From: a virus
Virus genome (UHGV): UHGV-0019120
Length of the DNA: 31,192 nt
Reading direction: 5' to 3' (one strand)
Shown: in pieces, positions 1 to 31,192 of the stretch
Position numbering within the stretch: the first letter of the stretch is position 1
How the letters are laid out: every line of letters begins with the position of its first letter
The notes under the pieces: model-generated
Told to the model about the DNA's origin: nothing
Seen by the model: only the letters and a program-made list of their open reading frames with translations
The model's database searches: none
Position numbers and translations under genes: made by a program

Positions 1-95
1 CAGCAACAAAGCGGTCATGAAAGCAAACCTTGAACCCGTTGCGCTTAAGGAACTTGTACGCAATCTGACAGAGTTCGCGGTGTGTTAACGCCATA

Positions 96-287
96 TCACT
101 CTCCTTTAGTACGCAAGTGGTTTTTCCAGCGGTTTTGCGCCGCGCTGCGCTTATCTTTGACTCCCTCTCTGGCAATTCCAGAAAATGAAAACAACACCAC
201 ACGGCGATTGCTAACTCTCAACCACTGGCTGGGGTAGCAAAGTCTGTATACACGGGAAATAAGCATCTTTGCTTTACGGTTTTTCAT
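96..287 (-). CDS. hypothetical small basic protein
   Basis: 63-aa ORF; AGGGGG Shine-Dalgarno about 7 nt upstream of ATG at 287; overlaps end of upstream ORF in operon-like fashion. No family recognised. Confidence 0.35.
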   Translation of the reverse strand: MKNRKAKMLISRVYRLCYPSQWLRVSNRRVVLFSFSGIAREGVKDKRSAAQNRWKNHLRTKGE

Positions 288-523
288 CGTTTGCCCCCTG
301 CTTTTCTGCCCTTAACACCATGCGAGAACCATCATCCAGCTCCCAATTGATTTCACCGCCTTCTGCCATGACAAGATGCCAAACGAGTTGTGCGGCCTCG
401 TTGGTTACATCACGACCGCGATCATTGCCTACACGGCGTTTTGTTCCGTCACCTAAATCGCGCATTTTGGCCAACACGATGGTTTTTGATAGCGGTGAAA
501 AACCAAGCTGTAGCCGTGCGGAA

Positions 524-1144
524 TTACTCACTGGTTGCCCCCTGAATACGTTTAAACTCAATTACCCATACCCACGGGTTAGATAGCCAGTTCTCTTGCC
601 CGTAAATACCGCGCCAGATATCACCAAAGCCAACGCGATAAACAGCTTCCGGCGGTGTAATCTTGTACGTCACCGGAGATGCGCCTTCTGCTTTAGCATC
701 TGCCTCGCTCATGTCATGCAGCCGCTCCACACGCACGTCGGTAATTTCCAGCAAAATACGCGAAGCCCAGCGCGGCATGTGAATCGACGGGGTCCAGCCC
801 TCAGCTGGCTTGCTACTATCTGAGTAATCAGCCTTGTAATCACACAGTTCAGAAGCCAGAGAGACACCATCTTTGATTTCCTGAATGACATCGTTATCCA
901 GCCAAAAAGCGTTGAATGTTTCACGGACCCATATGCGATCACCAACGTTACCGAACGGGCATAAACCATGTTCCAGTGCATCCATAACGTGGGTATAGAC
1001 ACCATTGCGTTTCTTTGTCGGTTTACGGATAACCAGGCAGTTATCGGCCCTGACATTTTTTACAGGTCGGCGAGTCTGCGTCTTCCTTCCTTCGAGGATG
1101 GCCCTAACCATATCGTCATTAAAAACAACACCACGTTCTTTCAT
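524..1144 (-). CDS. ASCH-domain-like phage protein
   Basis: 206-aa ORF; N-terminus MVRAILEGRKTQTRR matches my recollection of prophage ASCH-domain proteins; not verified by search. Confidence 0.55.
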   Translation of the reverse strand: MKERGVVFNDDMVRAILEGRKTQTRRPVKNVRADNCLVIRKPTKKRNGVYTHVMDALEHGLCPFGNVGDRIWVRETFNAFWLDNDVIQEIKDGVSLASELCDYKADYSDSSKPAEGWTPSIHMPRWASRILLEITDVRVERLHDMSEADAKAEGASPVTYKITPPEAVYRVGFGDIWRGIYGQENWLSNPWVWVIEFKRIQGATSE

Positions 1145-1299
1145 TTAGAAGCCACCTTGTTCAATTTCCGGCGACAAGACACGCAATCATCAGGACTCTC
1201 AAAAGTGTCTGGCTCACGGTAATCACCAAAATACATCCAACGGCCGCAAATGCTGGTTACTTCACCTTCATTAAAATAATGATGTTTATTCGCCTTCAT
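1141..1299 (-). CDS. hypothetical small Cys-containing protein (start uncertain)
   Basis: ORF track gives 1141..1395; internal Met (MKANKHH...) at 1299 avoids overlap with upstream gene; contains C..., CxxC. Weak. Confidence 0.25.
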   Translation of the reverse strand: MKANKHHYFNEGEVTSICGRWMYFGDYREPDTFESPDDCVSCRRKLNKVASK

Positions 1300-1328
1300 T
1301 GGCCTGACCCATCCGGCATTTTTCTTGC

Positions 1329-3123: not shown

Positions 3124-3225
3124 TCTCCGGTTTAACCAGGGCGGGTATCGCTCGGTTTCGGGTATAACCATAGGAAATTTTTTCCCACCTGTAAAGCACT
3201 TTTTATATAAATCTATAATTATATA
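3124..3225. repeat. 102-bp promoter/leader block, copy A
   Basis: 101/102 identical to 11972..12073. Read on the minus strand it contains an AT-rich upstream element, TTTACA-N17-TATGGT promoter, short leader and GGAG RBS. Confidence 0.9.
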
Positions 3226-3286
3226 TTTATAGATTTTCGATGTTCCCGATGTCTACACACCATCAAAACAGCTCAAAATGACACTT

Positions 3287-3664
3287 TTACTCTCTTCGCT
3301 TTTTCAAATAGTCGACAACATACGCCCTGGCTTTTGCCAGCTTCCGGCGATACTGTCTGAGGCTAAGAGAAAGGGCGTGGGCTTTATCAATATGCGGTGC
3401 ATTTATGTCGAGGCCCCGAATCTCCCACGCCCCGTATTCAATTCGGACAACCAGCGCCGCAGTCTCATCAACTACCGTGAGGGCCGTCACCGCTCCCTCT
3501 ATACTGGTTTCCAGTGAGTCATTTGGTGCGCCGCCCCCTCCGGTAAACTGGCAGCGCGTAACCATCATCATTTCTAACATCGACGCGAAACCGCTACGGG
3601 CGTTGCAGCCATTGCGCACCCACAGCGCCCATAGCTCAAACAAGCTATCCAGATCGCGTCTCAC
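3287..3664 (-). CDS. putative Q-like late antiterminator
   Basis: 125 aa; N-terminus MRRDLDSLFELWALW and basic C-terminus resemble what I recall of E. coli prophage Q homologues (Phage_antitermQ-like); last gene of the minus-strand early-type operon. Confidence 0.45.
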   Translation of the reverse strand: MRRDLDSLFELWALWVRNGCNARSGFASMLEMMMVTRCQFTGGGGAPNDSLETSIEGAVTALTVVDETAALVVRIEYGAWEIRGLDINAPHIDKAHALSLSLRQYRRKLAKARAYVVDYLKKRRE

Positions 3665-3667
3665 TGT

Positions 3668-4000
3668 TCAGATCTCCCGTATCGTGACGGGATAAAGCGC
3701 CTCTACCTGCTTTTTCTTCATGATGTAGACGTCTGTTCGCACACCTTTAGTGTCGACACAATCAATCGTCCCATCGTCATAAAACACCATGAAATCAAGT
3801 TTATAAACGACACCACCTGGCAGATGAAAAGGCACCTGCATAAGAAACGTCACAACGCGGCCAGCTTTTCTCAGTAGCTTCAGTTCGCAGTAGTAATCAG
3901 CCTCTTTTTTGCTATCAAAAGCGATATCATCGACAACCGTTTTTTTATTGCCGTATTTGCTTTTCCTTGTCGCTGGTTTGCGAAAGCCGGTATATCTCAT
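3668..4000 (-). CDS. DUF1064-like phage protein
   Basis: 110 aa; YGNKKT...FDSKKEA motif typical of DUF1064 proteins in lambdoid nin regions, as I recall; 4-bp overlap with upstream gene. Confidence 0.55.
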   Translation of the reverse strand: MRYTGFRKPATRKSKYGNKKTVVDDIAFDSKKEADYYCELKLLRKAGRVVTFLMQVPFHLPGGVVYKLDFMVFYDDGTIDCVDTKGVRTDVYIMKKKQVEALYPVTIREI

Positions 4001-4401
4001 TTGGTATCCCCTGGTACTTCACCAAGACTAAGATCAAACCCAATTTCGTCTTTAACTGACTGCGGCAACAGCTCCCACGTCTGCGCACACAAAAATTCAT
4101 CTGTGCCATAACGCTCAACAAAGCGAGCACAATTACTCAGGGGAGGGTGACGAACGGCAATATGCGGAGGCACACGCCCACCACCAGGCACAACACCGCG
4201 ATGATGTGGTGCGCACAACCCAAAGCTATGGAAGTGGCAATTCTCATCAACGCTGCCGTAATCAGGATCGTGATGTAGCTCCGTCCACAGCTCTGGATTC
4301 TCAATTTCACGGCCATCAATAATGCAAGCTATGCAACCCACGTGAGTGAGCACCGCTTGTATATAAAGTTTCTCTTTCTTCGTTGGTGTACGTCCGTTCA
4401 T
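3997..4401 (-). CDS. Cys/His-rich nin-region-like protein (possible nuclease)
   Basis: 134 aa with CxxC ... HH ... CHFH ... C..HH clusters suggesting metal binding; position matches lambdoid nin genes. Family uncertain. Confidence 0.4.
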   Translation of the reverse strand: MNGRTPTKKEKLYIQAVLTHVGCIACIIDGREIENPELWTELHHDPDYGSVDENCHFHSFGLCAPHHRGVVPGGGRVPPHIAVRHPPLSNCARFVERYGTDEFLCAQTWELLPQSVKDEIGFDLSLGEVPGDTK

Positions 4402-4634
4402 CAGCGCCCCTTACCATTGATAAAGAGGTTGAACTCGTTGATTAACTGGACATACATGCTTCTGGCCGCGTAGTTCTTTGCCAGCTCTTTACGGGATGAG
4501 ATCCCGCAAAACTCACGCAGAATCACAGAGGCCTCAGAACTGTTTGAAACGTTCTTCCCTGTTTTACTGGTCAGAAAGCGCCAGAATTGGGGATTCTGGC
4601 AATGCATCGCAGCACCGCGAACATAACTACTCAT
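4401..4634 (-). CDS. hypothetical protein
   Basis: 77-aa ORF translationally coupled to both neighbours (1- and 4-bp overlaps). Confidence 0.35.
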   Translation of the reverse strand: MSSYVRGAAMHCQNPQFWRFLTSKTGKNVSNSSEASVILREFCGISSRKELAKNYAARSMYVQLINEFNLFINGKGR

Positions 4635-5146
4635 TGATGGCCCCCGTCATTTCTGGTGCTTTTCACCGTGCGGCTTCTTAAAAACCTGCCATCACGAACA
4701 ACAGACACTTCTCGTTTACCCAACCTCATTTCACGGCGGTAACATTCAGAAAATGCCTCGTCCGGCATCATATAAATGCGACGCTTCGCCTCCGTATCCA
4801 GAAGGGAACGGCTTGGGGTTACATATAAGAACGACTCATCAATAGGGACAAAACCACGAGCAAGAATTGCTGGCAGAATACCAGGAAGAACGCAGAAAAC
4901 AGCTCCACGATGCAGCAACATCTGGTACTCCATGACCTCCGTAATCCCCGTAACGACTGTTACGGTGTCACGTCTGTTACGGCTGGCAACCAGTCGCTGC
5001 ACACCTCCAATTTTCTGCTCTACAGATAGACGTTTGCTATCGTTATCAATATGATCGATAACAAATCCTTTAATCGTTTGATCAAGGTAGTGCACCACCT
5101 GCGATTGAATCTGGTGATTATCACCAAAGAAGGCCAGAATCATCAT
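4631..5146 (-). CDS. hypothetical protein
   Basis: 171-aa ORF inside the minus-strand operon; no motif recognised. Confidence 0.45.
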   Translation of the reverse strand: MMILAFFGDNHQIQSQVVHYLDQTIKGFVIDHIDNDSKRLSVEQKIGGVQRLVASRNRRDTVTVVTGITEVMEYQMLLHRGAVFCVLPGILPAILARGFVPIDESFLYVTPSRSLLDTEAKRRIYMMPDEAFSECYRREMRLGKREVSVVRDGRFLRSRTVKSTRNDGGHQ

Positions 5147-5637
5147 TCCTCAAGCCTCCCAAGTGCTGAACGCCGGGCGTTGCTAATCTCCTTATGAATC
5201 AGCTCGATATCGCTGGAATCTTTATTCTTAAGCTCCAGCACGGTAATCGCATCACGAACCTCTGAAACGGTTACGTGTGAGTGTTTCCAGCGAGCAATGA
5301 ATCGCGGACCGCGTAGATTGCAACGCTCCGCAGGCATCCCCAGCTCAGAGAAAACCGCTTTCAGCCTTGATAAGCAGTTAACAGGGAGATTCCCTTTGAT
5401 CTTGTTCTGCCGAACCGATGTGCCATCGCTACGCTGGCGCTGACGTTCGGCAAAATCTGCCGCCCATTGCTGGACGTTAATCCGGCCTTCCGAATACGCC
5501 ACCAGCAGCGTCAGGTTATCCGCACGAGGGAATCTCTCGAAGCGATACCAGGCACCAATCAGTGATGACGTAAAGCCAAACTTTCTGGCAACACCAATTT
5601 GGCCTCCATTTTCGTCAACCCACTCCTGAAAGGTCAT
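5143..5637 (-). CDS. putative Cro/YdaS-like HTH regulator with C-terminal extension
   Basis: 164 aa; N-terminal GGQIGVARKFGFTSSLIGAW...P resembles the YdaS/Cro-type HTH; transcribed divergently from the CI-like gene with shared operators. Confidence 0.45.
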   Translation of the reverse strand: MTFQEWVDENGGQIGVARKFGFTSSLIGAWYRFERFPRADNLTLLVAYSEGRINVQQWAADFAERQRQRSDGTSVRQNKIKGNLPVNCLSRLKAVFSELGMPAERCNLRGPRFIARWKHSHVTVSEVRDAITVLELKNKDSSDIELIHKEISNARRSALGRLEE

Positions 5638-5656
5638 TTAACGAACTCCAGTTAAA

Positions 5657-5774
5657 ACCACGATACGTGGTATTAAAACCACATATCGTGAGTTTTTCAA
5701 TGGGCGAAACAAAAAATAACCTTCTATTTGTGGTCCACCTCTCGTCTTACCATGTGAAAACCACTAAATGTGGT
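5657..5774. promoter_or_regulatory. operator cluster in the divergent immunity promoter region
   Basis: ACCACGATACGTGGT (5657-5671), imperfect ACCACATATCGTG (5678-5690), half-site TTTGTGGT (about 5727-5734), ACCACTAAATGTGGT (5760-5774); all follow ACCAC-N5-GTGGT. Confidence 0.6.
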
Positions 5775-5811
5775 AATGTATAAATAACCCACCATTCACG
5801 ATTGATGAGAC

Positions 5812-6939: not shown

Positions 6940-6959
6940 AAGCGGGCTAACGCCCGCTT
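6940..6959 (+). terminator. hairpin after the 124-aa ORF
   Basis: AAGCGGGC-TAAC-GCCCGCTT stem-loop; downstream tract only moderately T-rich. Confidence 0.4.
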
Positions 6960-6960
6960 A

Positions 6961-7062
6961 TATGATTATAGATTTATATAATTATATAAAACGCTTTTCA
7001 TCAGCCAAAAAGTTGGTTATGCTTACCTCGTTCTATAAATATAGATTTATAGAATTATATAA
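6961..7062. promoter_or_regulatory. centromere-like / operator repeat arrays upstream of parA
   Basis: Two AT-rich blocks (6961-6988, 7033-7062) carrying TATAGATTT / TATAGAATT 9-mers, partly as direct copies offset by 8 bp. Confidence 0.5.
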
Positions 7063-7085: not shown

Positions 7086-7739
7086 ATGACTATCTCTGTA
7101 GGTATTTTCAACGGAAAAGGCGGCGTAACCAAATCAACAATTGCCCGTGCTTTAGCAGTTGCTTATGCAAAGGCTGGCTGGAATGTATGCCTGATCGATA
7201 TGGATGTGCTTAACGGAACGGTAACGCGTTGGGTACAACGCAGAATGGCCAACAATATCGAACCAGCAATCGCGGCGCAGCCGTGCGGCACACCATCACA
7301 AGTCCAGAAAATCATCGAATCAGAAGTATACGACCTGGTTATCGTCGATGGCGGTGCCTACGCATCTGAATCAGTACCGAAGCTATCTGAATTTCTGGAT
7401 ATGGTTATTTTGCCAACCCGATTCTCTACCGATGACCTGGAAACCACCGTTAACACTGCTCACGGCATCGTTAAAAAGGGTGTACCAATCAAGAAAATTT
7501 GCATGGTGTTTTCCGGCGCGGCTGAAAACGAAGCTGACTATATTGAAGCCCAAGAGTACCTGGCTAATACGCCATACTTTGTTGTCGATAAGTACATTCC
7601 CCACAAGCCAGCTCTGAGCAAAGCTCAGGATAAGGGCTTAAGCCTCATTGAGTGCTCATACGTTGCGCCACGCAAAAAGGCAGACGACGTTATTCAGGGG
7701 ATTATCAACCAGCTTGAGGCTCTGACTACTGCCGCATAA
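7086..7739 (+). CDS. parA: ParA/ParF-type partition ATPase
   Basis: Deviant Walker A FNGKGGVTKST, A-prime motif VCLIDMD, B-like DLVIVDGGA; start placed at ATG 7086 (GGAG RBS) rather than track start 7071. Confidence 0.8.
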   Translation: MTISVGIFNGKGGVTKSTIARALAVAYAKAGWNVCLIDMDVLNGTVTRWVQRRMANNIEPAIAAQPCGTPSQVQKIIESEVYDLVIVDGGAYASESVPKLSEFLDMVILPTRFSTDDLETTVNTAHGIVKKGVPIKKICMVFSGAAENEADYIEAQEYLANTPYFVVDKYIPHKPALSKAQDKGLSLIECSYVAPRKKADDVIQGIINQLEALTTAA

Positions 7740-7770
7740 TATATAATTATAGTTTTATAGATTTATATAA
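7737..7770. promoter_or_regulatory. TATAG(T/A)TTT repeat block upstream of the RHH gene
   Basis: TATAGTTTT and TATAGATTT direct copies offset 8 bp, between parA stop and the next start. Confidence 0.45.
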
Positions 7771-8093: not shown

Positions 8094-8243
8094 ATGTCCG
8101 AGCAACAATATACACGGTTACTGAAAACTCGTCTAACCGACCTCAAACGGCTGCAAGCTGGTCGCTTATTTGCCCTGCTATCCACCAGGCCAGAATGGGT
8201 ACGTGAAGCAGTTCTGAAAGGCTTAATGCGCTCCAGCGTTTAA
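8094..8243 (+). CDS. hypothetical small protein
   Basis: About 49 aa from ATG 8094 (MSEQQYTRL...), AAGGGG RBS; track ORF 8061..8243 starts upstream. A palindrome GCCAACTGTTGGC lies just upstream. Confidence 0.3.
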   Translation: MSEQQYTRLLKTRLTDLKRLQAGRLFALLSTRPEWVREAVLKGLMRSSV

Positions 8244-8252: not shown

Positions 8253-8276
8253 TAAAAAAGGCCCCCGAAGGGGCCT
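8253..8276 (-). terminator. intrinsic terminator for the minus-strand small gene
   Basis: GGCCCC-CGAA-GGGGCC hairpin; A6 on the plus strand gives a U-run on the minus strand. Confidence 0.55.
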
Positions 8277-8281
8277 AATCG

Positions 8282-8404
8282 CTACTTGCTGCTAATGTTT
8301 ATCGTCACATTCAGAGCGTTATCAGTAATCTTCCAACCCTCCCCATGTGGCGTAAACAAAGCCCCAGTAACAACGATAAAAATACACATACAGTATTTTT
8401 TCAT
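8282..8404 (-). CDS. small hydrophobic peptide (about 40 aa)
   Basis: MKKYCMCIFIVVTGALF... with AAGGG RBS and own terminator; track ORF 8282..8464 is longer. Confidence 0.3.
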   Translation of the reverse strand: MKKYCMCIFIVVTGALFTPHGEGWKITDNALNVTINISSK

Positions 8405-8802
8405 TGTATGGCCCTTACAGGCCGTTTCACGGCATCCCCACCGACGAAAACAACGCGAGAGCAAGCACGGCTGCTTGTGCTTGCATGTACGGCAACGGAG
8501 AATCCTCCCCTAAAGTCGGTGCCCGGGTGCGAATCGGCGGGAAGGTCCACAGGTATTTTACGATTATTTTAAGATTAGTAATAGGAAAGAAATTAAACGA
8601 AAAAACTCGTTTATTTTCACAAAATCAGTAACCTACCCACAATCTGTGAGTTTGCAGGCACAACAAGAACCACAATTTTTTGAAGCATAATAGTGGACTA
8701 TTATTACCTTTTGGGTAAAATTAACTTGCTGCTTGTGCTTGCGTGGTTGTTTATACAACGACGTTATGCTGAAAGGACCGCGAATCCGATCAGCACGAAA
8801 GA

Positions 8803-8828
8803 ACCGTCCTCAATAGGGCGGTTTTTTT
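8803..8828 (+). terminator. intrinsic terminator within the non-coding region
   Basis: ACCGTCCT-CAAT-AGGGCGGT stem (one G-U wobble) followed by T7. Confidence 0.5.
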
Positions 8829-8883
8829 GTTTCTGCCTACCAATAAACCCACGCTATGTGGTTGTCTCTGTTAAAATCCCGCC

Positions 8884-8994
8884 GTATTGACATGAATGCG
8901 CCATTGGTGGACACTTTCCGAGCCGTAGCAAAATCTACGGTCGGGATTGGAACCCCGTAGACACAATGGCGCATACCGCGTTAGCGGTTTTTTT
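8884..8994 (+). ncRNA. candidate structured small RNA (c4-like antisense regulator)
   Basis: Extended -10 TGtTAAAAT near 8866-8874; 9-bp outer stem 8898-8906/8964-8972 enclosing two hairpins, one with loop ATTGGAAC; ends at short hairpin plus T7 (8975-8994). No ORF. Confidence 0.35.
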
Positions 8995-9160
8995 ATGCGT
9001 AAAGCACTGCTACACCCAAATTATGGTGGGGCGTGCGGGGGAGTCGTAAGACTCGCCGGTTCGTCATTGTGTCCGGTAGTTCCAACCCTGCACGTCTCAC
9101 CACCCAATGATTGGAACCTGACGGTGGTGAGTATCCTTAACCTTTAAGGGAATCATCACA

Positions 9161-11230: not shown

Positions 11231-11256
11231 AAAACCGCCCGGCAAGGCGGTTTTTG
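11231..11256. terminator. bidirectional intrinsic terminator
   Basis: AAACCGCC-CGGCAA-GGCGGTTT stem flanked by A4 upstream and T5 downstream. Confidence 0.6.
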
Positions 11257-15639: not shown

Positions 15640-15675
15640 ATCTGGTCATTTTCCAACCAGACACCCACAATCATA

Positions 15676-20096: not shown

Positions 20097-20126
20097 GCTT
20101 AATTCCTTGGATTAACAAATCGCAAA

Positions 20127-22142: not shown

Positions 22143-22606
22143 AATAATTTACCTAACGCACTTCTAGTTTTTGACTCTATATTGCCAGCAATATCAACTA
22201 ATGCTTCTTTCAGAGAGGTCTGTCCGACTTCCTGTAATTTAATGCCGACGATAATCACTCGTGGATTCCCAGTTGGACCGAAATAAGTCCATGATTCCTC
22301 TATATCTGTAATTATAAAATTACCAAAATACTGAATACCAATTACAACAGGATTTACTTCCTGAATTGATTGCATTGTCCTAAGTAATGAAAGCGCAGCC
22401 AATGGAACAATGCCAAGTGTTGTATCCAACCGCATATTAAAACTAACTTCATCCAGATCTGGACCTATATCCTCCAGAACAGGTTTAAGCCCAATAACAT
22501 CATGGCGCGCTACACGACGCTTTGACGTCCTTTTAAAATTGTTGAACGTATTCACCACTATTGATGAGGCAACAAAAGGCATTGTACCAAGCATACCCAC
22601 AATCAT
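22139..22606 (-). CDS. hypothetical baseplate/tail protein
   Basis: 155 aa between V-like and W-like genes; family not recognised. Confidence 0.35.
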   Translation of the reverse strand: MIVGMLGTMPFVASSIVVNTFNNFKRTSKRRVARHDVIGLKPVLEDIGPDLDEVSFNMRLDTTLGIVPLAALSLLRTMQSIQEVNPVVIGIQYFGNFIITDIEESWTYFGPTGNPRVIIVGIKLQEVGQTSLKEALVDIAGNIESKTRSALGKLL

Positions 22607-23223
22607 GCCTGAGCCTCCGTTGTCGGAGCGTATTCCCCCTGAGCTGTGTGATGGTGGCCTTTAGATTTAATCCCATCAACATCTATATCACCACCAACAA
22701 CCTTAACATTCCCAGAAATTGTAGCTGCAACACCTCCAGCAGAAGATCCTTTCATTCCACCTTTGAAGGTTAGTAATCCTTCAACTGTAGCATTTCCGGT
22801 AATGATGGTTTCTGGAGCATCAATAGTTACGGTTCCTGTAGCCTTAATGGTTACATCTCCGACAGCATCAACAAGGAGTAAATTAGATTCTCTGTCTATC
22901 TCAATACGAGTTCCGTTATTAAATCTAATGACGCGTTTATTAACAGTATTAGATGGCGGCTTCTGTGTTTCATCATAAAAACTACCAAGAATAAAACCTT
23001 GTTGCGGCCCCGCGGGATGAAAGATACACAAAACTTGCTCACCAATATCTGGCATCCAGTAATCAGCATTCTTATCTGTATTTTTCACAATAACTGATAA
23101 CTTTGCCGAAGTGACGTTATCCTGATCATCGAAAGTAACTCTTGCTGTAACATCACCATCATCAATATCAGAAACAACGCCAACTCTTATAGTCTGACGT
23201 AATAATGTTTCTAAATCATTCAT
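22603..23223 (-). CDS. baseplate spike protein gpV-like
   Basis: 206 aa; GEQVLCIF...GSFY and Gly/Val-rich beta-helix-like C-terminus parallel P2 gpV. Confidence 0.7.
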   Translation of the reverse strand: MNDLETLLRQTIRVGVVSDIDDGDVTARVTFDDQDNVTSAKLSVIVKNTDKNADYWMPDIGEQVLCIFHPAGPQQGFILGSFYDETQKPPSNTVNKRVIRFNNGTRIEIDRESNLLLVDAVGDVTIKATGTVTIDAPETIITGNATVEGLLTFKGGMKGSSAGGVAATISGNVKVVGGDIDVDGIKSKGHHHTAQGEYAPTTEAQA

Positions 23224-23225
23224 AA

Positions 23226-24227
23226 TTAATACCCATTAATTACTCTTCGGACATCAATCGAGGTGGTATAACCACTAGTCCCAATTGAATGCACAGCTTT
23301 CGATATAAGATATTTTCCAGAAAATGAACCGAATCCCTCCAGATTTATAGTTACACCAGCTACCAATCTGGTGTCTCCAACCAATACTAAAGATCCGGTA
23401 TTTTGATATCTATTTTTAAGCCGCAAAGCAGCCTTTGCCTTACGTTTTGCTTCATCTAAATTAGCTACCAGTTTTCTTATCTTAAGATTCGACCCTTCTT
23501 CTACGGATGGATCTACCCAAGTATACGAAAGCGACTTTCTTTTTTTAGGTACGCGATATTTGCACGTGCAACTTTTATACAAATCTGTAGATTGTGTGCT
23601 AAAGCTATATCTGATTATCTCATCAATACCTAACGTAAGCGTAGCGATAGGATCTTTTTGCTCAAACATCTCTTGAGCAAATATTATTAATTGGCTATCA
23701 GTGACCTTTAACGACAACCCTTCATCCTGGCAAAGTCGATGGAGAAATTTTAAATCGCTTTCCTCCATTTGATCTTCACGCGCATAATATGGATTACTAT
23801 CACCATCAATAAGAAACAACAGTTCAAGGTTAGCTAATTTAGCTATAGAAGTTGCTATATCTTTAAGAGTTGTTTTTTCCCATGCATTACTTTTTAAATC
23901 ACGTCTAATGCCTGATGAAATAGGAACAGAAACAGCAGTTACCTCAACCACAGAAGGTGGTCCAGAGCAAGTTATGCCATCTACCTGGAATTTCCCGCAC
24001 TCAAGGACGATTTGATTTATAGGCTTAAAGCTCAAATCAATAAAATCACCCTTTTTAGGTGTCCAGTCTCCAGACCATTTCCCATCATCATTTTTTAATA
24101 TAATAGAAATATCATCGACCTGACCATCTTCATTATCTGTATAAGACATTGACAAAACATCAGGTGACATATGAGCGGTAATATTTACATTCTGATATAT
24201 AACATCAAAAAGCGTTTTACGTAACAC
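23226..24227 (-). CDS. putative gpD-like baseplate hub protein
   Basis: 333 aa after the X-like gene; assigned by position and size. Confidence 0.55.
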   Translation of the reverse strand: MLRKTLFDVIYQNVNITAHMSPDVLSMSYTDNEDGQVDDISIILKNDDGKWSGDWTPKKGDFIDLSFKPINQIVLECGKFQVDGITCSGPPSVVEVTAVSVPISSGIRRDLKSNAWEKTTLKDIATSIAKLANLELLFLIDGDSNPYYAREDQMEESDLKFLHRLCQDEGLSLKVTDSQLIIFAQEMFEQKDPIATLTLGIDEIIRYSFSTQSTDLYKSCTCKYRVPKKRKSLSYTWVDPSVEEGSNLKIRKLVANLDEAKRKAKAALRLKNRYQNTGSLVLVGDTRLVAGVTINLEGFGSFSGKYLISKAVHSIGTSGYTTSIDVRRVINGY

Positions 24228-24435
24228 TATTGCGTCTCCACGGAGGAAAATTGTTTACTGATATTGGCATAACCGGAGCATCAGGAACTTTAAGAATAAT
24301 TCCCGCAGAAAAAAGCACCGTAAAGCGGTGCTCAGTATTAGCATCAATAAGAAGATAAGACAGGTACTCATTACCATACAACTTTAAAGCGATACTATCC
24401 CATGAGTCCCCTTGAACCGTTCTATAATCATCCAA
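24217..24435 (-). CDS. tail protein X-like (LysM domain)
   Basis: 72 aa; YRTVQGDSWDSIALKLYGNEYLSYLLIDAN is a LysM-like motif. Confidence 0.65.
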   Translation of the reverse strand: MDDYRTVQGDSWDSIALKLYGNEYLSYLLIDANTEHRFTVLFSAGIILKVPDAPVMPISVNNFPPWRRNSVT

Positions 24436-27220
24436 AACTTAATCTCCGTTGTTGGAACATATGAGCACTCAATTTCTTCTCAAAATCAGAATATCCCGCA
24501 TCTAATGCTCTTTTAGCTGCCGCCTCAGTTTCCTTTGGTGAACCAGCCGGAAGATTGATTACAGGTGAATAGGTTATTCCACCAGTCACAGCGTTAACGT
24601 TCTGGCGAGGTCCAGAAGTCCCAGCGGCAGATATCCCGTGAGGTGATAAATTTGATTGCCCGAACTTGCTTGCTATTGCATTCTGTAAGCTGTTATTCCT
24701 GCTAACACCTGATGCCAGAGTAGTCATTATTGCACCACCTGACTTTGTTAGCTGTGAGAATGGACCTTTTTTCGCGTCAGAGAACGGTAAATACTCACGT
24801 ACAGAAGAAAAAACGCCTTTCACTTCATTAATTAAAGCATTTGCTTTTGATTTTATCCCAGTGATTAACGTCTCAATTATTTTTGCGCCTGACTCACTCC
24901 AGTTTATTCCAGATAAATAAGTCGTTACAGATTGGAATGCTCTTATAAAGAGTCCAACTGGTGAAAAACGCATAAAAACAGATACCAGTGTATCTATGAT
25001 TTTCTTTCCTGTTTCGCTCCAGTTAATGCCAGAAAGGTAATTTGTTGTAATTTTAAATGCTTTAATTAAGAACGGAAGCGGAGACATCCATTTAAAAGCA
25101 CTAATTAATGTACTGTAAATTCTTACTCCTGCCGAACTCCAGTTTATGTTGGAAAGATAATCCCATGCTTTACCAAACATAGATATAATCCATCCATTGA
25201 GGTCAAAGTTTAAGATAAAGTTTTTTATAGCCTCAAATGATTTAACTGTATATTCCTTAACAGAAGGCCAAACTCTGACAGCATAATCTCTGATCTTATC
25301 CCAATTCTGATAGAGCAATATTCCTGCGGCAACCAGCGCAGATATAGCCATCTGAATCCACCCGAAGGGTGTTAGCTTTGTCGCTACAGATAAAGCCAGC
25401 ATAGCTACCCTACACGCTATAACCACACTTTTCATGGTTAGAAACGCACCTGCCGCCATCACTATCTGAGACACAAAATTGGGGTTGTTAGCTACAAATT
25501 CACTAATTTTTGTAATCAGCGGAACCAAAACACTAAGCGCGGCATTCAAAGCAGGTTGCAAGGCCTGACCAAAACTTAATGATGCATTGCTAGCCTGAAT
25601 ACGTAATTGTTTCAATCGCTCCGCATTATCTTTCGTTATGTTGGCAAAATCGCGGTCAATAACAGCACTTCCAGCTCCAAGAGATGTTGCTTTGATTCTC
25701 TGGTATTCCTTCCAGTTTTGAATCATCGGACGAACAAAGTTCTGAACCTGCATATCGCCAAATAGTTCACCAAGTAACTTCTGATCTCCGTTCTTAGTCA
25801 TTTTCATGACAGAATGCATTGCAGCTTCGAATGGATTCTTCCCTTTTTTCTGCGCTGTTGTAACAATTTTATATAAATCTACACCGAAATTTTTCTTTGC
25901 TTTTTTTAGTGTTTCAGGGGAAAGTATTTTTGCCAAAAAGTTGTTCATATTATTAGCAGCCTCATCCGAAGTTGCAGCCCCCTTGCGAGCTATCTGCAAA
26001 GCTGCACCCATCGTCGCGGCTGCTTCTTTACCTCCCATTTTTAATGCCTGGAACTGAGCACCAAGCACAGGAAGATTTTTGGCCATATCTTTAAATTCAA
26101 AGTTCCCCTCTTTCCCTGCCTGAACCAGAATCCCCATTGCAGACTTCATTTGAGATGGATCAATCTTCAATGAGTCACTTAATGTAAATGATGCTTTCGA
26201 GACATCGAGGATATCAGAGCCAGTAGCTGTAGCTGTTCGCCCAATAGTTAGTAGATTCGCCTGAGCCTCTTTATAATCCTGCCCAGCAGCGACGAGAAAA
26301 CCCTGAGCGGCCTGAATATCAGATGCAAACTGGTTGGTAGCCGTTCCGGTAACAAGCATCGCCTGCCCCATCGCCTGAACTTCTTCCGGCTTCATATCTG
26401 CCGTAAGACCAATCATTTTGTTTTCACGATTGAAATTTGCTGCATTGTTAGCAGCAGCAAATGCACCAGCCGCTACAGCACCAGTTTGTAATCCTGACCT
26501 TACAAGTTGACTCTTTGCCTCACCAAGATGCTCTCGCTTCAATTCACGCTGCCTTTCCAACGCGCGGTTTAACTCCTCCTGAGCACGTTTTACTGCAAGA
26601 ACATTTTTCCGTGCTTCAGCCAACGCATTTTTATAGCTGTTAATTTTATCAATACGTTGTTTTTCTAATGCCCGGTTAAGTTCCTCCTGCTGTTTTTTCA
26701 CTTGCTGAACATTTGCTCTGGCTAAAGCCAAAGCCGTTCTGTAGCGGTTAACCTGCTCAACGCTACGGGCCTGAGCCTCACGATTACGATCAATGCTGGC
26801 TTTAAGCTCTTTCTCTCTTGAGGCCAAAGCTCTGGCAGATGTATCAGCTCCCTGATAGGCAGACTTTAAAGCGGCCAGTTCTTCACGCTGAGAACGTAGT
26901 GATGCTCGTAAATTTGATGAATGTGTTTTTGCCTTCTCAAAGTCACGAAGCATCGCTCTGGTTGGATTGGCCGTGTTTTTTATTTGCTTCTGTAACTCTT
27001 CAACGCGAGCGGCAGCTTTATGATATTCGAGGGCAGTCTGTCCAACCTTTACTTTTACAGATTGTAGCTTTTGAATTTCCCCATGTTCTTTCGTTAATCC
27101 AGCAAGCTCTGCATTTAATTTAGCAACAGCCTGATTAGCTGTAGTAAAACTTTTGGGGAGAGAGGCGGCAACTTTGCCGCCAATTTCAAAAGCCAGCTTA
27201 AAGTTCTTATTGCTGGCCAT
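24428..27220 (-). CDS. tail tape measure protein
   Basis: 930 aa; long Ala/Lys/Glu/Arg-rich helical N-terminal half, hydrophobic segments, tandem SGINWSE-containing repeats; directly after the chaperone genes. Confidence 0.8.
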   Translation of the reverse strand: MASNKNFKLAFEIGGKVAASLPKSFTTANQAVAKLNAELAGLTKEHGEIQKLQSVKVKVGQTALEYHKAAARVEELQKQIKNTANPTRAMLRDFEKAKTHSSNLRASLRSQREELAALKSAYQGADTSARALASREKELKASIDRNREAQARSVEQVNRYRTALALARANVQQVKKQQEELNRALEKQRIDKINSYKNALAEARKNVLAVKRAQEELNRALERQRELKREHLGEAKSQLVRSGLQTGAVAAGAFAAANNAANFNRENKMIGLTADMKPEEVQAMGQAMLVTGTATNQFASDIQAAQGFLVAAGQDYKEAQANLLTIGRTATATGSDILDVSKASFTLSDSLKIDPSQMKSAMGILVQAGKEGNFEFKDMAKNLPVLGAQFQALKMGGKEAAATMGAALQIARKGAATSDEAANNMNNFLAKILSPETLKKAKKNFGVDLYKIVTTAQKKGKNPFEAAMHSVMKMTKNGDQKLLGELFGDMQVQNFVRPMIQNWKEYQRIKATSLGAGSAVIDRDFANITKDNAERLKQLRIQASNASLSFGQALQPALNAALSVLVPLITKISEFVANNPNFVSQIVMAAGAFLTMKSVVIACRVAMLALSVATKLTPFGWIQMAISALVAAGILLYQNWDKIRDYAVRVWPSVKEYTVKSFEAIKNFILNFDLNGWIISMFGKAWDYLSNINWSSAGVRIYSTLISAFKWMSPLPFLIKAFKITTNYLSGINWSETGKKIIDTLVSVFMRFSPVGLFIRAFQSVTTYLSGINWSESGAKIIETLITGIKSKANALINEVKGVFSSVREYLPFSDAKKGPFSQLTKSGGAIMTTLASGVSRNNSLQNAIASKFGQSNLSPHGISAAGTSGPRQNVNAVTGGITYSPVINLPAGSPKETEAAAKRALDAGYSDFEKKLSAHMFQQRRLSFG

Positions 27221-27225
27221 TAGTA

Positions 27226-27408
27226 TTAATCCTCATTAAACACGTCAATCCATGCGACGATTCGCCTCAACCGAAGCGAAAGCCAGTAGGATATAGGTGT
27301 TGATTGAGATGATTGAGATAGAGAACTCGCGGCCCTCATTATTTGCTTATCAATAGGTTTTTGCTCATCAAAACCTACGAGAGCAAAAAATTCTGTACCT
27401 TTTGACAA
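27226..27408 (-). CDS. tail chaperone frameshift extension (E-prime-like)
   Basis: No ATG; lies in the -1 frame relative to the chaperone gene, overlapping its 3' end across slippery heptamer TTTTTTG. Confidence 0.5.
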   Translation of the reverse strand: MSKGTEFFALVGFDEQKPIDKQIMRAASSLSQSSQSTPISYWLSLRLRRIVAWIDVFNED

Positions 27409-27656
27409 ACTTTAACAAAGTCTTTCGCTGGTAATCCATTCAGATACTCTATTGGACGACCAATACAGCGAGCAGCCAAGGCTGCATGGACTTTATTATC
27501 AAGTGATGTTTGAACTGAAACATGCCCTTGAGATTGCAGTAAGTCCGATACCTCTAAAATATCACTGCCTTTTAGGTTGTCTAAATCAAGGTTGAGTTCA
27601 GTCACCGGCTCAAAGTCTTCAAAACGATATTCTTTACTTAATTTAACGGTTTCCAT
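27375..27656 (-). CDS. tail assembly chaperone (P2 gpE-like)
   Basis: 93 aa, acidic, between tube and tape measure; ends ...QNFLLS with TTTTTTG embedded in the last codons. Confidence 0.6.
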   Translation of the reverse strand: METVKLSKEYRFEDFEPVTELNLDLDNLKGSDILEVSDLLQSQGHVSVQTSLDNKVHAALAARCIGRPIEYLNGLPAKDFVKVCQKVQNFLLS

Positions 27657-27665
27657 TTTGTCACC

Positions 27666-28187
27666 TTATAAACCTAAATCATCACGAACGCTTTTTAATA
27701 TATCTTCACCATCAAAGATACAAATAAAGTTCAACTTATCAATTTCCAGGACTTCTTTTCCATCAATAAATAATTTGATATAGAGAACTTCAAATTCATT
27801 CTCTGAATCAGTAGCCTTTGCCACCTGTAGCGAACCTAAATCCAGTTTTTTAGGGTTTAGCTTCATTGAAGCCCGAATAGGAACCGTTTTATATTTTCCT
27901 GTTCCTGCATCATAAACCTGCTGGCTACCGCGAAAATCTACCTGATGCGATGAGGATAGAAATAATTTTGTACCAGCAGAGGTCAGAGTTCGCCATTTAA
28001 GAGAGACAGTCATTGGTTTGAAATGCCCCAGCGTTCCGCTCTCAAGCTCTCCAGCGATACCTGCACCACTAACAGTTTCTGTCATCATCTCAATTGATGG
28101 CAGCTTTGCGTCAGCAACACCGATAATACGGTTTCCTTCACCGTATACTGTAAAGTTAATAAGTCTCTCAGGAATTTGATTGCTCAA
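27666..28187 (-). CDS. tail tube protein (P2 FII-like)
   Basis: 173 aa; INFTVYGEGNRIIGV...LPSIE and C-terminal FIDGKEVLEIDKLNFI parallel P2 FII. Confidence 0.7.
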   Translation of the reverse strand: MSNQIPERLINFTVYGEGNRIIGVADAKLPSIEMMTETVSGAGIAGELESGTLGHFKPMTVSLKWRTLTSAGTKLFLSSSHQVDFRGSQQVYDAGTGKYKTVPIRASMKLNPKKLDLGSLQVAKATDSENEFEVLYIKLFIDGKEVLEIDKLNFICIFDGEDILKSVRDDLGL

Positions 28188-28203
28188 AGCAACCTCCTAT
28201 TAT

Positions 28204-29667
28204 TTATTCAGAAAACAAGTTCAGCAGATAATCAGGATTATATTCCATGACGAACTCTATATCTCTGGCAGGTGAGAATGGTGTCATTTTCACATGGAAT
28301 TTAACAATCCCGTCCATCAATGACGTAATCGTGTTTTCAGACTGATCAAAGGTAACAACACCACCTGCAATATCCTGATTACCAGTGAGGCCGTTAAGCC
28401 AAATATTCGCACTAGTAACAATCGATTCAATTAATCGACGGTTTGCAGGATTGTCTATTTTTGACCAATGCGAAAGAATTAACGTATTACCCACCCAGTT
28501 AAACATACGTCGGCAAACACGAAATGCGTCTTTGGGGTCTGTAGATGTTGGATAAATAGCATTACGGTTTCCCCATGATTTCCAACCATCAAAATTAAGG
28601 CTTGTTACAATCCCCTGTCCATTTAAGTAGTTTGCCTGGCTAATGTTAAGCCATACCTCACTGCCATCTTTACGTACAGCACCGTCCATCTGTAGTTTTA
28701 TATTTGACGGAGAACGTGATGGAATATCACCATACTGACTATCCAGCAAGCATGTTGCTGCCGCTAAATGGGTTGAGTGATGGTAAATATTGTCACCAAG
28801 TTTCACCATCGGCCAGCACACTGTCTGGTTAGCTGCCATATGATTATTGTTCTGCTTCCATTCAGGAACAGCAGAATAATCACTGATAGTAGATTTATCA
28901 GTCGGCGCATCGGTGATAGCTTCTGCTTTGAACAATTCACTAATCAGCGCAGCTTTAGCCGCCATTAGCTGGCCAACTTCACTATCAGAACTAAATCCAG
29001 GCGCAATCACTTGTCCTGGAACTAGTTTGAAGCGGGGATAAACATCCGACAGTAACTCAAGCCCCGTATTCGCTTTAGTGTTGGAATCCACACCACCAAT
29101 AATATCGTTTTTAGTTACAGCCCCGGGATCAAGATGCGTATAACTAACCTTAAGAGTGGCGTCTTTTTCAGTAATTTTTCCTCCGCTAATAGCGGTAATG
29201 ACCGTATAGCCATTATCATCCAGCGCCAGTACATAATCTGTATCAACCGTTAACCCTGGAGAATCACCATCTGCTTTTTTCACAACAACAGATTTATATA
29301 AGACACCATCGTTAGAGAGCGTACCTTTCCCGCCAGAAAGTTTTACTACCTCATCAGTTACGTCTTTCTTATGCTTTGCTGGATCAAGCACATTGATAAA
29401 TACAACTGGCGCAACACCATATATTCCAAATGCGACTTTAATTACTTCGCTTAAAGTATATTTCTCGAAGTTTGTGCTATATCCTATTTTAGATACGGCC
29501 TCTGCGTATGTATAAGCAATGATAGGTTTATTTACCGCTGAGGCTGGATCTTCTAACTGATTAACAGGAGCTGTACCAAATGCGACAATCAACCCAGCAC
29601 TAACTTGTACTGGAGGAGTTATAGATGTAGCCAGCTCAGATATATAAATACCGTGGCGATATCCCAT
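28204..29667 (-). CDS. contractile tail sheath protein (P2 FI-like)
   Basis: 487 aa; C-terminal WGNR...KFHVKM...Y block resembles sheath proteins. Confidence 0.8.
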   Translation of the reverse strand: MGYRHGIYISELATSITPPVQVSAGLIVAFGTAPVNQLEDPASAVNKPIIAYTYAEAVSKIGYSTNFEKYTLSEVIKVAFGIYGVAPVVFINVLDPAKHKKDVTDEVVKLSGGKGTLSNDGVLYKSVVVKKADGDSPGLTVDTDYVLALDDNGYTVITAISGGKITEKDATLKVSYTHLDPGAVTKNDIIGGVDSNTKANTGLELLSDVYPRFKLVPGQVIAPGFSSDSEVGQLMAAKAALISELFKAEAITDAPTDKSTISDYSAVPEWKQNNNHMAANQTVCWPMVKLGDNIYHHSTHLAAATCLLDSQYGDIPSRSPSNIKLQMDGAVRKDGSEVWLNISQANYLNGQGIVTSLNFDGWKSWGNRNAIYPTSTDPKDAFRVCRRMFNWVGNTLILSHWSKIDNPANRRLIESIVTSANIWLNGLTGNQDIAGGVVTFDQSENTITSLMDGIVKFHVKMTPFSPARDIEFVMEYNPDYLLNLFSE

Positions 29668-29957
29668 TATTTAATCTCCATGATAGAAGAAGAAACTCTA
29701 GAGTACATTACATACTCGACACTGGTTTTATCAGAAAGTCTTTTTTCTGCATCTGAAAAATCACTGGTTGCCACAAACAAACACTTTGCACCAGGAATAT
29801 GTGATATTAATTTTTCACACTCTGGAGATAAGCCATTCTTAAATAGTTTATGCTTCAAAATTGAGAGTTGAGGGATTGTTGGCCCTATATATACAAATAT
29901 TTGAGCAACATCTTCCTTCTTTTCTATATCTTCTTTACTACTTTTCTTATTAGCCAT
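29667..29957 (-). CDS. hypothetical protein
   Basis: 96-aa ORF upstream of sheath; AT-rich. Confidence 0.35.
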   Translation of the reverse strand: MANKKSSKEDIEKKEDVAQIFVYIGPTIPQLSILKHKLFKNGLSPECEKLISHIPGAKCLFVATSDFSDAEKRLSDKTSVEYVMYSRVSSSIMEIK

Positions 29958-30443
29958 TTAGATAAACTCCTGAGACTGAATATTCTGAGGCTTTAATACT
30001 AGCCACGTTCCAGTTGCTTCCGTTATCCAATATGGATATGGTTGATCATCAAACATTCGCCATCTGATATCACCCTGAAAGAGAAATTTCTCTTCAAGTA
30101 AAGGCTTCTCCTGAAAATGAAACATCATCCTTTCAAGAAGAGCCATTACCCATTCATATCCAGTATGGTCCTCACAAAAACCACCTAGAAGAAACTTAAC
30201 CTTAACTTCATCCGTTTCAGGCTGCATTCCTCCTTCCGTGGGCCTGATAATCACATGAGGAAATTCTGGCGGTTTATCTGGAGATGGTTGTGATTTAGGA
30301 GGCAAGTACCCTTTAAATATTGTTGGAACAAACAATTTAATATCGCTGTCTGTTTCATCATAAGGAGGCCCCTGCACTAATAAATCATGGAAAACCTCAT
30401 GTTCCAACCGATTTTTTATTGCATCTATCAAAAGATTAATCAA
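29958..30443 (-). CDS. hypothetical virion protein (possible tail completion/neck)
   Basis: 161 aa; assignment by position only. Confidence 0.4.
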   Translation of the reverse strand: MINLLIDAIKNRLEHEVFHDLLVQGPPYDETDSDIKLFVPTIFKGYLPPKSQPSPDKPPEFPHVIIRPTEGGMQPETDEVKVKFLLGGFCEDHTGYEWVMALLERMMFHFQEKPLLEEKFLFQGDIRWRMFDDQPYPYWITEATGTWLVLKPQNIQSQEFI

Positions 30444-30784
30444 ATCGGCATTCCTCTGTTAGTATTAACAGTGAGAGTTATTTCCAATACACCAACATTA
30501 TCTGATACTTCATCAACAATATAATTTTTACCGTTGATTTTCATTGACTGGTCTTTGACAGGGAGAACAGGAAAATCTTTTCTTGAAACAAATAATATTA
30601 TTTGCCCCTGATTTATTCCCTCTGCAAACTCAGCATATGAGCGTTTATTCCGCTCATGAATAAGGTCTGTATCAATAACGGCAAGGATATCCTTGCCGTC
30701 TATGTTATATGTATCGGCAAACTCTTTTTCATTGAGGAATATTGCAGAAATATCTTGCGCTATAACCTCTTTGAAGGAGTTCAT
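30440..30784 (-). CDS. hypothetical virion protein
   Basis: 114 aa; translationally coupled to neighbours. Confidence 0.4.
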   Translation of the reverse strand: MNSFKEVIAQDISAIFLNEKEFADTYNIDGKDILAVIDTDLIHERNKRSYAEFAEGINQGQIILFVSRKDFPVLPVKDQSMKINGKNYIVDEVSDNVGVLEITLTVNTNRGMPI

Positions 30785-31176
30785 TACTTCTTATTACCTT
30801 TTTTTTGCGTTGATTTTTTCGCATTACTGGTATCAGAAGTAGCTACAGATTCAGATGAATCATCAGCAACCATTTCCTCATTGCCGCCATCATCCTCAAA
30901 CTCAACCTCGAATACACAGCTACCCGCCTCCGTTCGCGTAATCAACCCCGCGTCCACAGCATCATTAACAGCAGATGCGTATCCATGCTCAAAAGCTAAC
31001 TTAGCAGCATCATAGCCCCCAGCCGATGCCAAATCACCATCCTCTTCGGTGGCAATAGCATGTCCTGACGCAATCAGTTCGGCAATTCTGGAGTTATCCA
31101 TTAGCCCATTAAGCAAACGGCCCGCTTTTAGCGAGCCGTGGCTTATCGTATCAATGTTTTTAATCAGTCTGGCCAT
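30784..31176 (-). CDS. hypothetical virion protein with acidic/basic C-terminal tail
   Basis: 130 aa; AAGGTGG RBS upstream of ATG 31176. Confidence 0.4.
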   Translation of the reverse strand: MARLIKNIDTISHGSLKAGRLLNGLMDNSRIAELIASGHAIATEEDGDLASAGGYDAAKLAFEHGYASAVNDAVDAGLITRTEAGSCVFEVEFEDDGGNEEMVADDSSESVATSDTSNAKKSTQKKGNKK

Positions 31177-31192
31177 TTAAACCACCTTAGCC

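Follow-up and report, generated by a model that had tools for sequence, protein, structure and literature searches.

UHGV-0019120 as the probable portion of a circular temperate myovirus kept as a low-copy plasmid in Enterobacteriaceae

UHGV-0019120 is a virus genome sequence of 31,192 nt; it was analysed over its full length, which is referred to here as the window. Phage tail genes are found in it on one replicon with plasmid-type replication, partition and addiction genes. These include repA with a candidate origin, parA with a small partner gene, a HigBA-type toxin-antitoxin pair, a CI-like repressor gene facing an early operon, an antirepressor unit and a contractile tail module (Table 1). 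An earlier note on this DNA described a hybrid plasmid/phage architecture and favoured a phage-plasmid over an integrated prophage; most of the components that it listed are present, at the positions given in Table 1. The window is about two thirds of a circular element of ~48 kb. We read it, with a probability of about 0.88, as 31 kb of a circular temperate myovirus that has a low-copy plasmid as its prophage (a phage-plasmid).

Positions 541-31192 align in one piece to pPRO_A-1505-6W-A_3, a circular E. coli plasmid of 47,904 bp (99.83% identity, 6 gaps), and the alignment spans the origin of that record. Circularity, which the earlier note had proposed to check, is supported by this collinearity with a closed 47.9 kb plasmid and by more than 60 independent closed plasmids of 44-52 kb with the same architecture. 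In a megablast search with the first 25 kb, the only near-full-length matches were circular E. coli plasmids of ~47-50 kb (98-99.8% identity) and three Yersinia phage records. The latter (vB_YpM_39, _41 and _44) are 49 kb long, have Y. pestis EV76 as host, are ~97.7% identical and carry the same repA; the 'M' in their names stands for myovirus, and the same element has thus been deposited three times as a phage genome. Head, packaging and lysis genes are absent from the window and sit on the full plasmids. The 16.7 kb of pPRO_A-1505-6W-A_3 outside the window is annotated with a major capsid protein, a ClpP-like head protease, a portal and a large terminase, as well as ParB/Srx-methyltransferase genes, a tRNA, two holins and an endolysin.

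Table 1. Features of the window. Scores are in bits; aa, amino acids; HTH, helix-turn-helix; ORF, open reading frame; sRNA, small RNA. Strand is left empty where none applies.
Feature	Position	Strand	Evidence or remark
Early operon	3287-5637	-	164-aa (Cro position), 171-aa and 77-aa proteins, Ref nuclease, DUF1064 and 125-aa proteins
125-aa sigma-region-4/Q21-like protein	3287-3664	-	End of early operon
DUF1064 protein	3668-4000	-	Early operon
Ref nuclease	3997-4401	-	Early operon
Three operator palindromes	5656-5775		Between cI and divergent early operon, sites at 5656, 5677 and 5759; motif AACCAC-N5-GTGGTT
CI-like prophage repressor, 218 aa	5812-6468	+	XRE HTH_3, 43 bits; PHROG phrog_4, transcriptional repressor
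Perfect operator copy just after cI	6510		Motif scan
Arrays flanking parA	6958-6989, 7031-7062, 7739-7770		32 bp, 8-bp TTATAKAW units
Further arrays	1986-2017, 3203-3234, 12051-12074		TTATAKAW units
Small ParA, Walker ATPase	7086-7739	+	Family models, PHROG
ParA partner, 82 aa	7783-8031	+	Basic disordered N-terminus, two C-terminal helices
Type I toxin-antitoxin candidate	8254-8833		ryfA/timP-like RNA and divergent TimR-like sRNA
ryfA/timP-like RNA	8254-8550	-	Rfam ryfA, 141.8 bits (gathering score 80)
40-aa hydrophobic ORF in ryfA RNA	8282-8404	-	TimP-like; toxicity putative
TimR-like sRNA candidate	~8728-8833	+	Promoter-like site 8694-8721; terminators nearby
immI unit	8847-10494	+	CI-type operator, boxes, C4 RNA, 63-aa ORF, ant
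Operator copy before antirepressor operon	8847-8863		Motif scan
isrK-like leader	8922-8994	+	Rfam isrK, 67.7 bits (gathering score 50); whole leader with a1/b1 boxes 8909-8994
a1/b1 boxes	8947-8953, 8960-8968	+	Complementary to C4 loops
C4 antisense RNA	9019-9107	+	Rfam RF01695, 77.8 bits (gathering score 45)
a2 box	9111-9117	+	Complementary to C4 loop
b2 box	9157-9165	+	Spans ATG (9161) of 63-aa ORF
63-aa ORF before ant	9161-9352	+	Start overlapped by b2
ant, antirepressor, 381 aa, intact	9349-10494	+	ORF6N and pRha domains; anti-repressor PHROGs
HigBA-type pair	12550-13196	-	Toxin gene first, then antitoxin; one base shared
HTH antitoxin	12550-12849	-	HTH_3, HTH_37
HigB-like Gp49 toxin (RelE fold)	12849-13196	-	PF05973, 80.7 bits
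Candidate origin	14400-14520		DnaA box 14509-14517 beside AT-rich stretch, downstream of repA
RepA, ORF	14659-15639	-	Pfam PF02387, 154 bits
RepA from conserved start	14659-15507	-	ATG 15495 (or 15507) rather than 15639
Candidate countertranscript RNA, ~88 nt	15552-15640	+	Antisense to repA leader; promoter-like TTGCGT-16-TATAAT at 15518-15545; ends in terminator hairpin and U-run
Perfect operator copy in repA leader	15675-15691		Motif scan
Predicted repA promoter TTGACT-16-TATGAT	15797-15824	-	Promoter scan; kept in Salmonella
Hexapeptide (LbH) acyltransferase	16106-16669	+	Hexapep, 47.5 bits; between tail-fibre assembly gene and repA
Contractile tail module and head-tail connectors	16633-31176	-	Pfam, PHROG, PGAP

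The tail block proper (16633-29667) encodes Tfa, fibre, gpI, J, W, a U-like protein, V, D, X, the tape measure, an E-type chaperone, tube and sheath, and is followed by four small virion proteins. Pfam matches were obtained for tube FII, gpU, V, J, I, D, tape measure, E chaperone, fibre and Tfa; W/gp25 and X fall below the cut-off, and the sheath is named by PGAP only. The P2-like contractile tail of the earlier note is borne out by Pfam and PHROG families across the block. The module shares with the tails of P2 and Mu the tube FII, gpU, V, W, J, I, D, X, E chaperone, tape measure, fibre and Tfa families. It differs from P2 in that the genes form a single collinear block from sheath to Tfa, an order that resembles Mu more than the two operons of P2. 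The head genes of the full plasmid, which belong to the type with portal, ClpP-like protease and major capsid, also set it apart from P2. In its distal part (17941-19377) the fibre gene is ~94% identical at the nucleotide level to gene H of P2-like phages, and this likeness indicates a recent exchange of a putative host-range module. An Rfam IS009 match (16709-16907, minus strand) lies inside the tail-fibre assembly gene; at 79 bits it is under the gathering score of 117 and probably reflects coding-sequence similarity rather than an RNA gene.

The acyltransferase gene beside the fibre genes may be a cargo or host-modification gene. In many relatives a Hin/Pin DNA invertase and an invertible fibre segment take its place. 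In addition, a 56-bp deletion between GAGCCGC repeats (~11227-11499, minus strand) truncates a 90-aa XRE regulator gene in the window; plasmid pE1-5 and the Yersinia phages (vB_YpM_39) have the gene intact. Immediately upstream of the truncated gene there is a perfect 25-bp palindrome (11551-11575). Taken together, the deletion and the missing invertase might mean that this copy is not fully functional. The strongest competing explanation is that the window comes from a defective phage-derived plasmid, which is maintained but gives no infectious virions; the split ant gene of the closest plasmid points the same way. We consider this unlikely. All tail genes of the window are intact ORFs with family matches, and Ant is intact at 381 aa; the 99.8%-identical plasmid has undamaged genes for head, packaging and lysis. 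Near-identical elements have moreover been deposited in GenBank as phage genomes, which is indirect evidence that the lineage makes infectious virions.

The temperate phage-plasmid reading is supported by where its parts are found. Of 5,426 complete E. coli genomes, 71 carry the repA-ori segment (14030-15850); its 82 places in them are all on plasmids and none is on a chromosome. The tail core (24428-31192) is present in 72 of these genomes, and 82 of its 83 places are on plasmids. A PLSDB search with the repA leader returned 63 records (59 Escherichia, three Salmonella, one Klebsiella), all typed as non-mobilizable; they range from 32 to 94 kb and are mostly 46-52 kb. Among them, pE1-5 has no replicon type assigned. 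From these three placements it follows that the replicon and the virion genes are passed on jointly, in the form of a plasmid. The remaining tail-core place, on a chromosome record, could be an integrated or a misassembled copy; it does not appear among the matches listed. A lower-stringency DNA search with 27600-31192 gave no extra diverged chromosomal relatives in E. coli genomes; even at that stringency the tail core kept to the set of genomes that holds repA-ori.

The earlier note saw no integrase in the window. None is annotated elsewhere on the replicon either, in three full-length relatives (pPRO_A-1505-6W-A_3, pE1-5 and a Salmonella Weltevreden plasmid); the only recombinase-type gene, found in some relatives, is the Hin/Pin-type invertase adjoining the tail fibre. 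Neither chromosomal flanks with an integrase nor a pseudogenised RepA was found, and RepA is an intact protein that shares 96-98% identity with its counterparts on closed plasmids and in the deposited phage genomes. An integrated prophage with relic plasmid-like genes, for which the one chromosomal tail-core place and the absence of circular closure within a window that ends in phage genes could be cited, is therefore highly improbable against 82 of 82 plasmid placements, collinearity with a circular plasmid across its record origin and an intact RepA.

RepA is the sole replication initiator annotated on the element. It belongs to the superfamily of IncFII initiators: besides PF02387, it matches NF040977 (RepA_IncFII_LM) at 227.6 bits (cut-off 70). 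It falls short of the model for true IncFII RepA, reaching only 78.3 bits against the TIGR03474 incFII_RepA equivalog cut-off of 446.9, and is 28-37% identical, over part of its length, to classical IncFII RepA proteins. The 'IncFII-type' label of the earlier note is thus right at superfamily level only. By tblastn, RepA copies at 95% identity or more are confined to the plasmid family and to the three Yersinia phages; a scan of one genome per species found no RepA relatives. The nearest RepA outside the family (37% identity over its full length) is that of pCAV1344-40, a K. pneumoniae type IV secretion plasmid. The ParA and small protein of pCAV1344-40 were considered as homologues of the pair in the window and rejected, as comparison found no homology.

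The start codon of repA is probably ATG 15495 and not ATG 15639, because the Salmonella relative, whose annotated RepA has 277 aa, lacks the latter; a more distant relative has a RepA of 276 aa. A classical IncFII plasmid with a recently captured prophage, or an assembly chimera of plasmid and phage, has the Pfam IncFII_repA match in its favour; it is scarcely credible given the low identity to classical RepA proteins, the TIGR03474 result, the lack of transfer genes in a family whose relatives are all non-mobilizable, the more than 60 independently closed circles, and a backbone order (repA, toxin-antitoxin pair, par genes, cI, early operon) that is kept in the syntenic Salmonella Weltevreden plasmid (~74% nucleotide identity) and in more distant metagenomic relatives.

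The origin candidate of the earlier note lies downstream of repA and is supported by two sequence features. The only perfect DnaA box in the window, TTATCCACA at 14509-14517, is 142 bp past the repA stop, and GC content drops to 23% at 14400-14499. By these features the placement fits an R1-like arrangement. At the other end of the gene, plus strand 15520-15645 is predicted to fold into a pair of highly stable hairpins with a U-run after them (-67.8 kcal/mol, z = -8.3). These hairpins and the promoter-like hexamers of the candidate countertranscript are kept between E. coli and Salmonella, with two compensatory pairs; antisense-strand terminators are also present in the repA leaders of a distant metagenomic relative (L006) and of pCAV1344-40. 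Within the antisense target, at 15566, begins a leader ORF (MGASTTPIIRW...) that is kept in Salmonella and runs well beyond the repA start. Just downstream of the predicted repA promoter is a GATC-N8-GATC pair (15768-15783), a possible Dam/SeqA-sensitive element; both GATC sites are kept in Salmonella and the spacer differs.

The IncFII replicon of R1 and R100 (copB-copA-tap-repA-oriR) shares with the window a PF02387 RepA, a DnaA-box origin candidate downstream of repA, a strongly folded countertranscript candidate over the leader and a conserved leader ORF that starts within the target. It differs in several respects. In the window RepA fails TIGR03474 and is ~30% identical, there is no Rfam CopA match, and no CopB gene is evident (none is annotated upstream of repA in the 99.8%-identical plasmid). 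In addition, the leader ORF continues past the repA start, and a phage-repressor operator sits in the leader. We infer a CopA-like control logic without membership of the CopA family.

The repressor gene accounts for one half of the CI/Cro-like switch that had been proposed. The CI-like protein has a clear XRE HTH, and three palindromic operators lie between its gene and the divergent early operon. The C-terminus of the protein scores 18.4 bits against Peptidase_S24, under the cut-off of 23.3; NDELMS is seen by eye at the usual GDSM motif, and sequence matches in PDB are limited to the HTH. The other half, Cro, is an assignment by position: the first divergent gene encodes a 164-aa protein with no family match, including Pfam at E-values up to 10. 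Its length is kept in the distant relatives L006 and L008.

The operator motif AACCAC-N5-GTGGTT, with up to two mismatches, occurs eight times in the window compared with 0.94 expected. It is present at the same five regulatory positions in four relatives (a Yersinia phage, two E. coli plasmids and a Salmonella plasmid; L001-L004). In the repA leader of Salmonella both half-sites are kept and the spacer is different. From its position the motif is inferred to be the CI operator; if so, the prophage repressor would also touch RepA expression.

The last gene of the early operon was called a Q-like antiterminator in the earlier note. There is no sequence support for this: the 125-aa protein has no Pfam match, sequence methods gave just a weak match to the PA0613 family, and its 31 homologues among 5.8 billion proteins include none that is named. 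In its structural model (pLDDT 77) the top Foldseek match is Q21, at sub-significant E-values of 0.3-0.9, so that a weak structural similarity to Q21 is what stands. The position of the gene at the operon end, after Ref and DUF1064, is kept in distant relatives, and the L006 and L008 proteins are 59-63% identical to that of the window. The protein is probably a sigma-4-type transcription factor, and Q21-like antitermination by it is plausible from the model.

N15, phiKO2 and PY54 are similar to this element in being plasmid prophages without an integrase, in having a CI-like repressor with three operators toward a divergent lytic gene, and in carrying an antirepressor, a partition system and a putative Q. 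Their DNA is linear and ends in hairpin telomeres, in contrast to the window element, which is circular and has a contractile tail, an IncFII-superfamily RepA and an apparent antisense RNA. N15, phiKO2 and PY54 have a protelomerase, siphovirus particles and a large multifunctional RepA of an unrelated family. A further likeness is that additional operators at the replication gene of N15 and phiKO2 tie copy number to immunity; experiments have shown that copy number is lowered by the CB repressor, which binds to operators located at the repA promoter (PMC4997575).

The antirepressor operon proposed in the earlier note was recovered, with ORF6N and pRha domains in Ant, as part of a P1/P7-type immI unit. 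Two loops of the C4 RNA have perfect complements of 7-9 nt both upstream (a1/b1) and downstream (a2/b2). The Rfam c4-a1b1 model scores 38.8 bits, under its gathering score of 46.7. C4 RNA is also present in L001, L002 and L004. Control of ant is predicted from these elements to be RNA-based and P1-like rather than lambdoid. The 'lambdoid regulation' of the earlier note is only partly right: a CI-like repressor is combined here with P1/P7-type immI (c4 RNA).

P1 and P7 resemble the element in several other ways. They are circular plasmid prophages with a contractile tail, and have a c4 RNA with a1/b1 and a2/b2 boxes, a masked small ORF and ant downstream. Both sides also have a Ref-family nuclease, and an invertase-switched tail fibre is found in relatives of the window element. 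In contrast, P1-type elements are ~72-125 kb compared with ~48 kb here, and their primary repressor is C1 instead of an XRE-HTH/S24-like protein. P1 uses an iteron-type RepA, type Ia ParAB-parS and Cre-lox; none of these was seen on the window element.

Partition was attributed by the earlier note to a ParA/ribbon-helix-helix pair. ParA is confirmed by family models. The 82-aa partner is confined to this plasmid/phage family and gave no family, fold or ribbon-helix-helix match in sequence and structure searches; an AlphaFold2 model has helices at residues 47-59 and 62-80 with a short extended segment before them, which is plausibly compatible with ribbon-helix-helix. The pair is similar to type Ib partition systems of the omega/ParG type in having a small ParA, a partner of ~80 aa with a basic flexible N-terminus and a predicted strand-helix-helix C-terminus, and short repeat arrays before the par genes and several other operons. 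It differs in that the partner has no sequence or fold match to any ribbon-helix-helix protein.

The arrays are ~32 bp long and consist of four AT-only 8-bp units. They are found between genes at six sites of the window, and at eight when the whole plasmid is counted; two are before parA and one is between parA and the partner gene. The distance from an array to the transcription unit downstream is 13-130 nt (up to ~170 nt on the whole plasmid). TTATAKAW arrays gave 11 strand-hits in the window compared with a block-shuffle mean of 0.9. The Salmonella plasmid has eight arrays at equivalent positions despite ~74% nucleotide identity. In L006 and L008, which are GC-richer, AT-only islands with different, lineage-specific units are found at the same kinds of places, and the predicted strand residues of the ParA partner vary in step with the array units across lineages.

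Such a pattern would suit a centromere-binding protein with a second role in global regulation. The omega protein of pSM19035 and ParG of TP228 are centromere-binding proteins that also act as global regulators. The 125-aa protein is an alternative candidate for the array binder. Two further observations were made around these loci. A 102-nt direct repeat (3124-3225 and 11972-12073, 99% identical) places the same array-bearing leader before the DUF3560 gene and an unrelated 126-aa gene. An unannotated ORF of 49 codons (8095-8243, plus strand) lies between the ParA-partner gene and the ryfA terminator, and aligns with the Salmonella relative.

The HigBA-like module of the earlier note is present as described, with the gene for a Gp49/RelE-fold toxin first and that for an HTH antitoxin second. 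The pair is kept beside repA in L006. When the small unknown genes were searched for defence systems with PADLOC, only this toxin-antitoxin pair was matched. The ryfA/timP-timR locus, which the earlier note missed, is a candidate for a second addiction system. Positions 8728-8745 repeat 8470-8487 at 17 of 18 positions, so that the 5' end of the putative sRNA is complementary to the timP 5' untranslated region. Copies from E. coli and from the Yersinia phages have the locus; the Salmonella relative lacks it. As in TimP/TimR (ryfA/ryfB), a ryfA RNA carries a small hydrophobic ORF at the corresponding position, and the candidate divergent sRNA, whose 5' end is complementary to the 5' untranslated region, ends in a terminator. 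The locus differs in location: in the window it is between the partition and immI units of a phage-plasmid, and otherwise in the chromosomal sseA-sseB region, where ryfA RNA with a divergent sRNA has been described in this arrangement (PMC7667032).

These components suggest how the element might be maintained and induced. In the lysogen, the IncFII-superfamily RepA would fire the origin just downstream of its own gene, and the ~88-nt countertranscript over the leader would limit RepA, probably together with the CI-like repressor acting through the leader operator. ParA and its 82-aa partner would segregate the copies; the HigBA-type pair, and probably the timP/timR-type pair, would penalise plasmid loss. 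CI would shut the divergent early operon through the three operators, while the c4 antisense RNA would hold off Ant by masking the start of the small upstream ORF. On induction, Ant would inactivate CI, and this would release the early operon, the sigma-4/Q21-like regulator and RepA together. The control logic known separately from P1 (immI), N15 (operator at repA) and R1 (RepA superfamily, countertranscript) would then be combined in one element. A repressor operator in the repA leader beside an antisense RNA makes a compact system for studying the link between immunity and copy number; the element is a tidy experimental system rather than a surprise.

Besides the chromosomal tail-core place and the truncated XRE gene, several points count against the phage-plasmid reading or against parts of this scheme. 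The window ends inside phage genes, and the circularity of this copy is taken from its relatives on sequence grounds. A search of the literature and of the supplements of phage-plasmid surveys found no paper or name for the Yersinia phages or the plasmid family. The operator in the repA leader is ~100 nt downstream of the best predicted repA promoter, which makes its effect on RepA uncertain. A LexA box was sought in regulatory DNA and none was found. The Rfam CopA model has no match in the window at E-values up to 1, and the covariation cited for the countertranscript comes from three sequences.

The lineage is found in ~1.3% of complete E. coli genomes, including that of the reference strain ATCC 25922. 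Its hosts also include Salmonella, Klebsiella, E. albertii and E. fergusonii, and the phages were isolated on Yersinia pestis. Two Logan assemblies (L006, 1-18568; L008, 1-16326) are distant relatives with the same backbone order. Both have parA with a small partner, a gene of 124-132 aa, cI, the 164-aa gene, Ref and the 125-aa regulator; of the two, only L006 was seen to have repA and the Gp49/HTH pair. Since they keep the backbone order, the lineage, as judged from these assemblies, is broader than the E. coli and Salmonella plasmids.

Phage-plasmids spread genes both by infection and by plasmid inheritance, and a small number of large groups (relatives of P1, N15 and SSU5) are the focus of current typing schemes. 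The tyPPing scheme has ten typed groups: P1_1, P1_2, N15, SSU5_pHCM2, pMT1, pCAV, pSLy3, pKpn, AB_1 and cp32. Its myovirus groups P1_1 and P1_2 are 72-125 kb, and its SSU5-related groups are siphoviruses of 85-134 kb. The lineage is outside these ten groups, set apart by its size range and virion type. The name pSLy3 was considered for the family and rejected, as it denotes an SSU5-type siphovirus group of 85-134 kb. In a search of a phage collection, P1, N15 and SSU5 were not among the matches listed, and the only long matches were the three Yersinia phages.

Phage-plasmids as a kind are well known, and near-identical sequences are already in databases; the lineage itself appears to be little studied. 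A more ambitious proposal would be that this is a distinct, widespread and unnamed lineage of Enterobacteriaceae in which one double-controlled IncFII-superfamily replicon serves both maintenance and lytic replication, and in which the ParA partner is at once centromere protein and global regulator through lineage-specific 8-bp arrays before at least eight transcription units. As a whole this is put forward tentatively, the odds being rather against it.

The left end of the window differs from the remainder. Positions 1-540 are unmatched in the 99.8%-identical plasmid and yet are 91% identical to a Yersinia phage; this points to a putative mosaic junction in an ead/Ea22-like accessory region.

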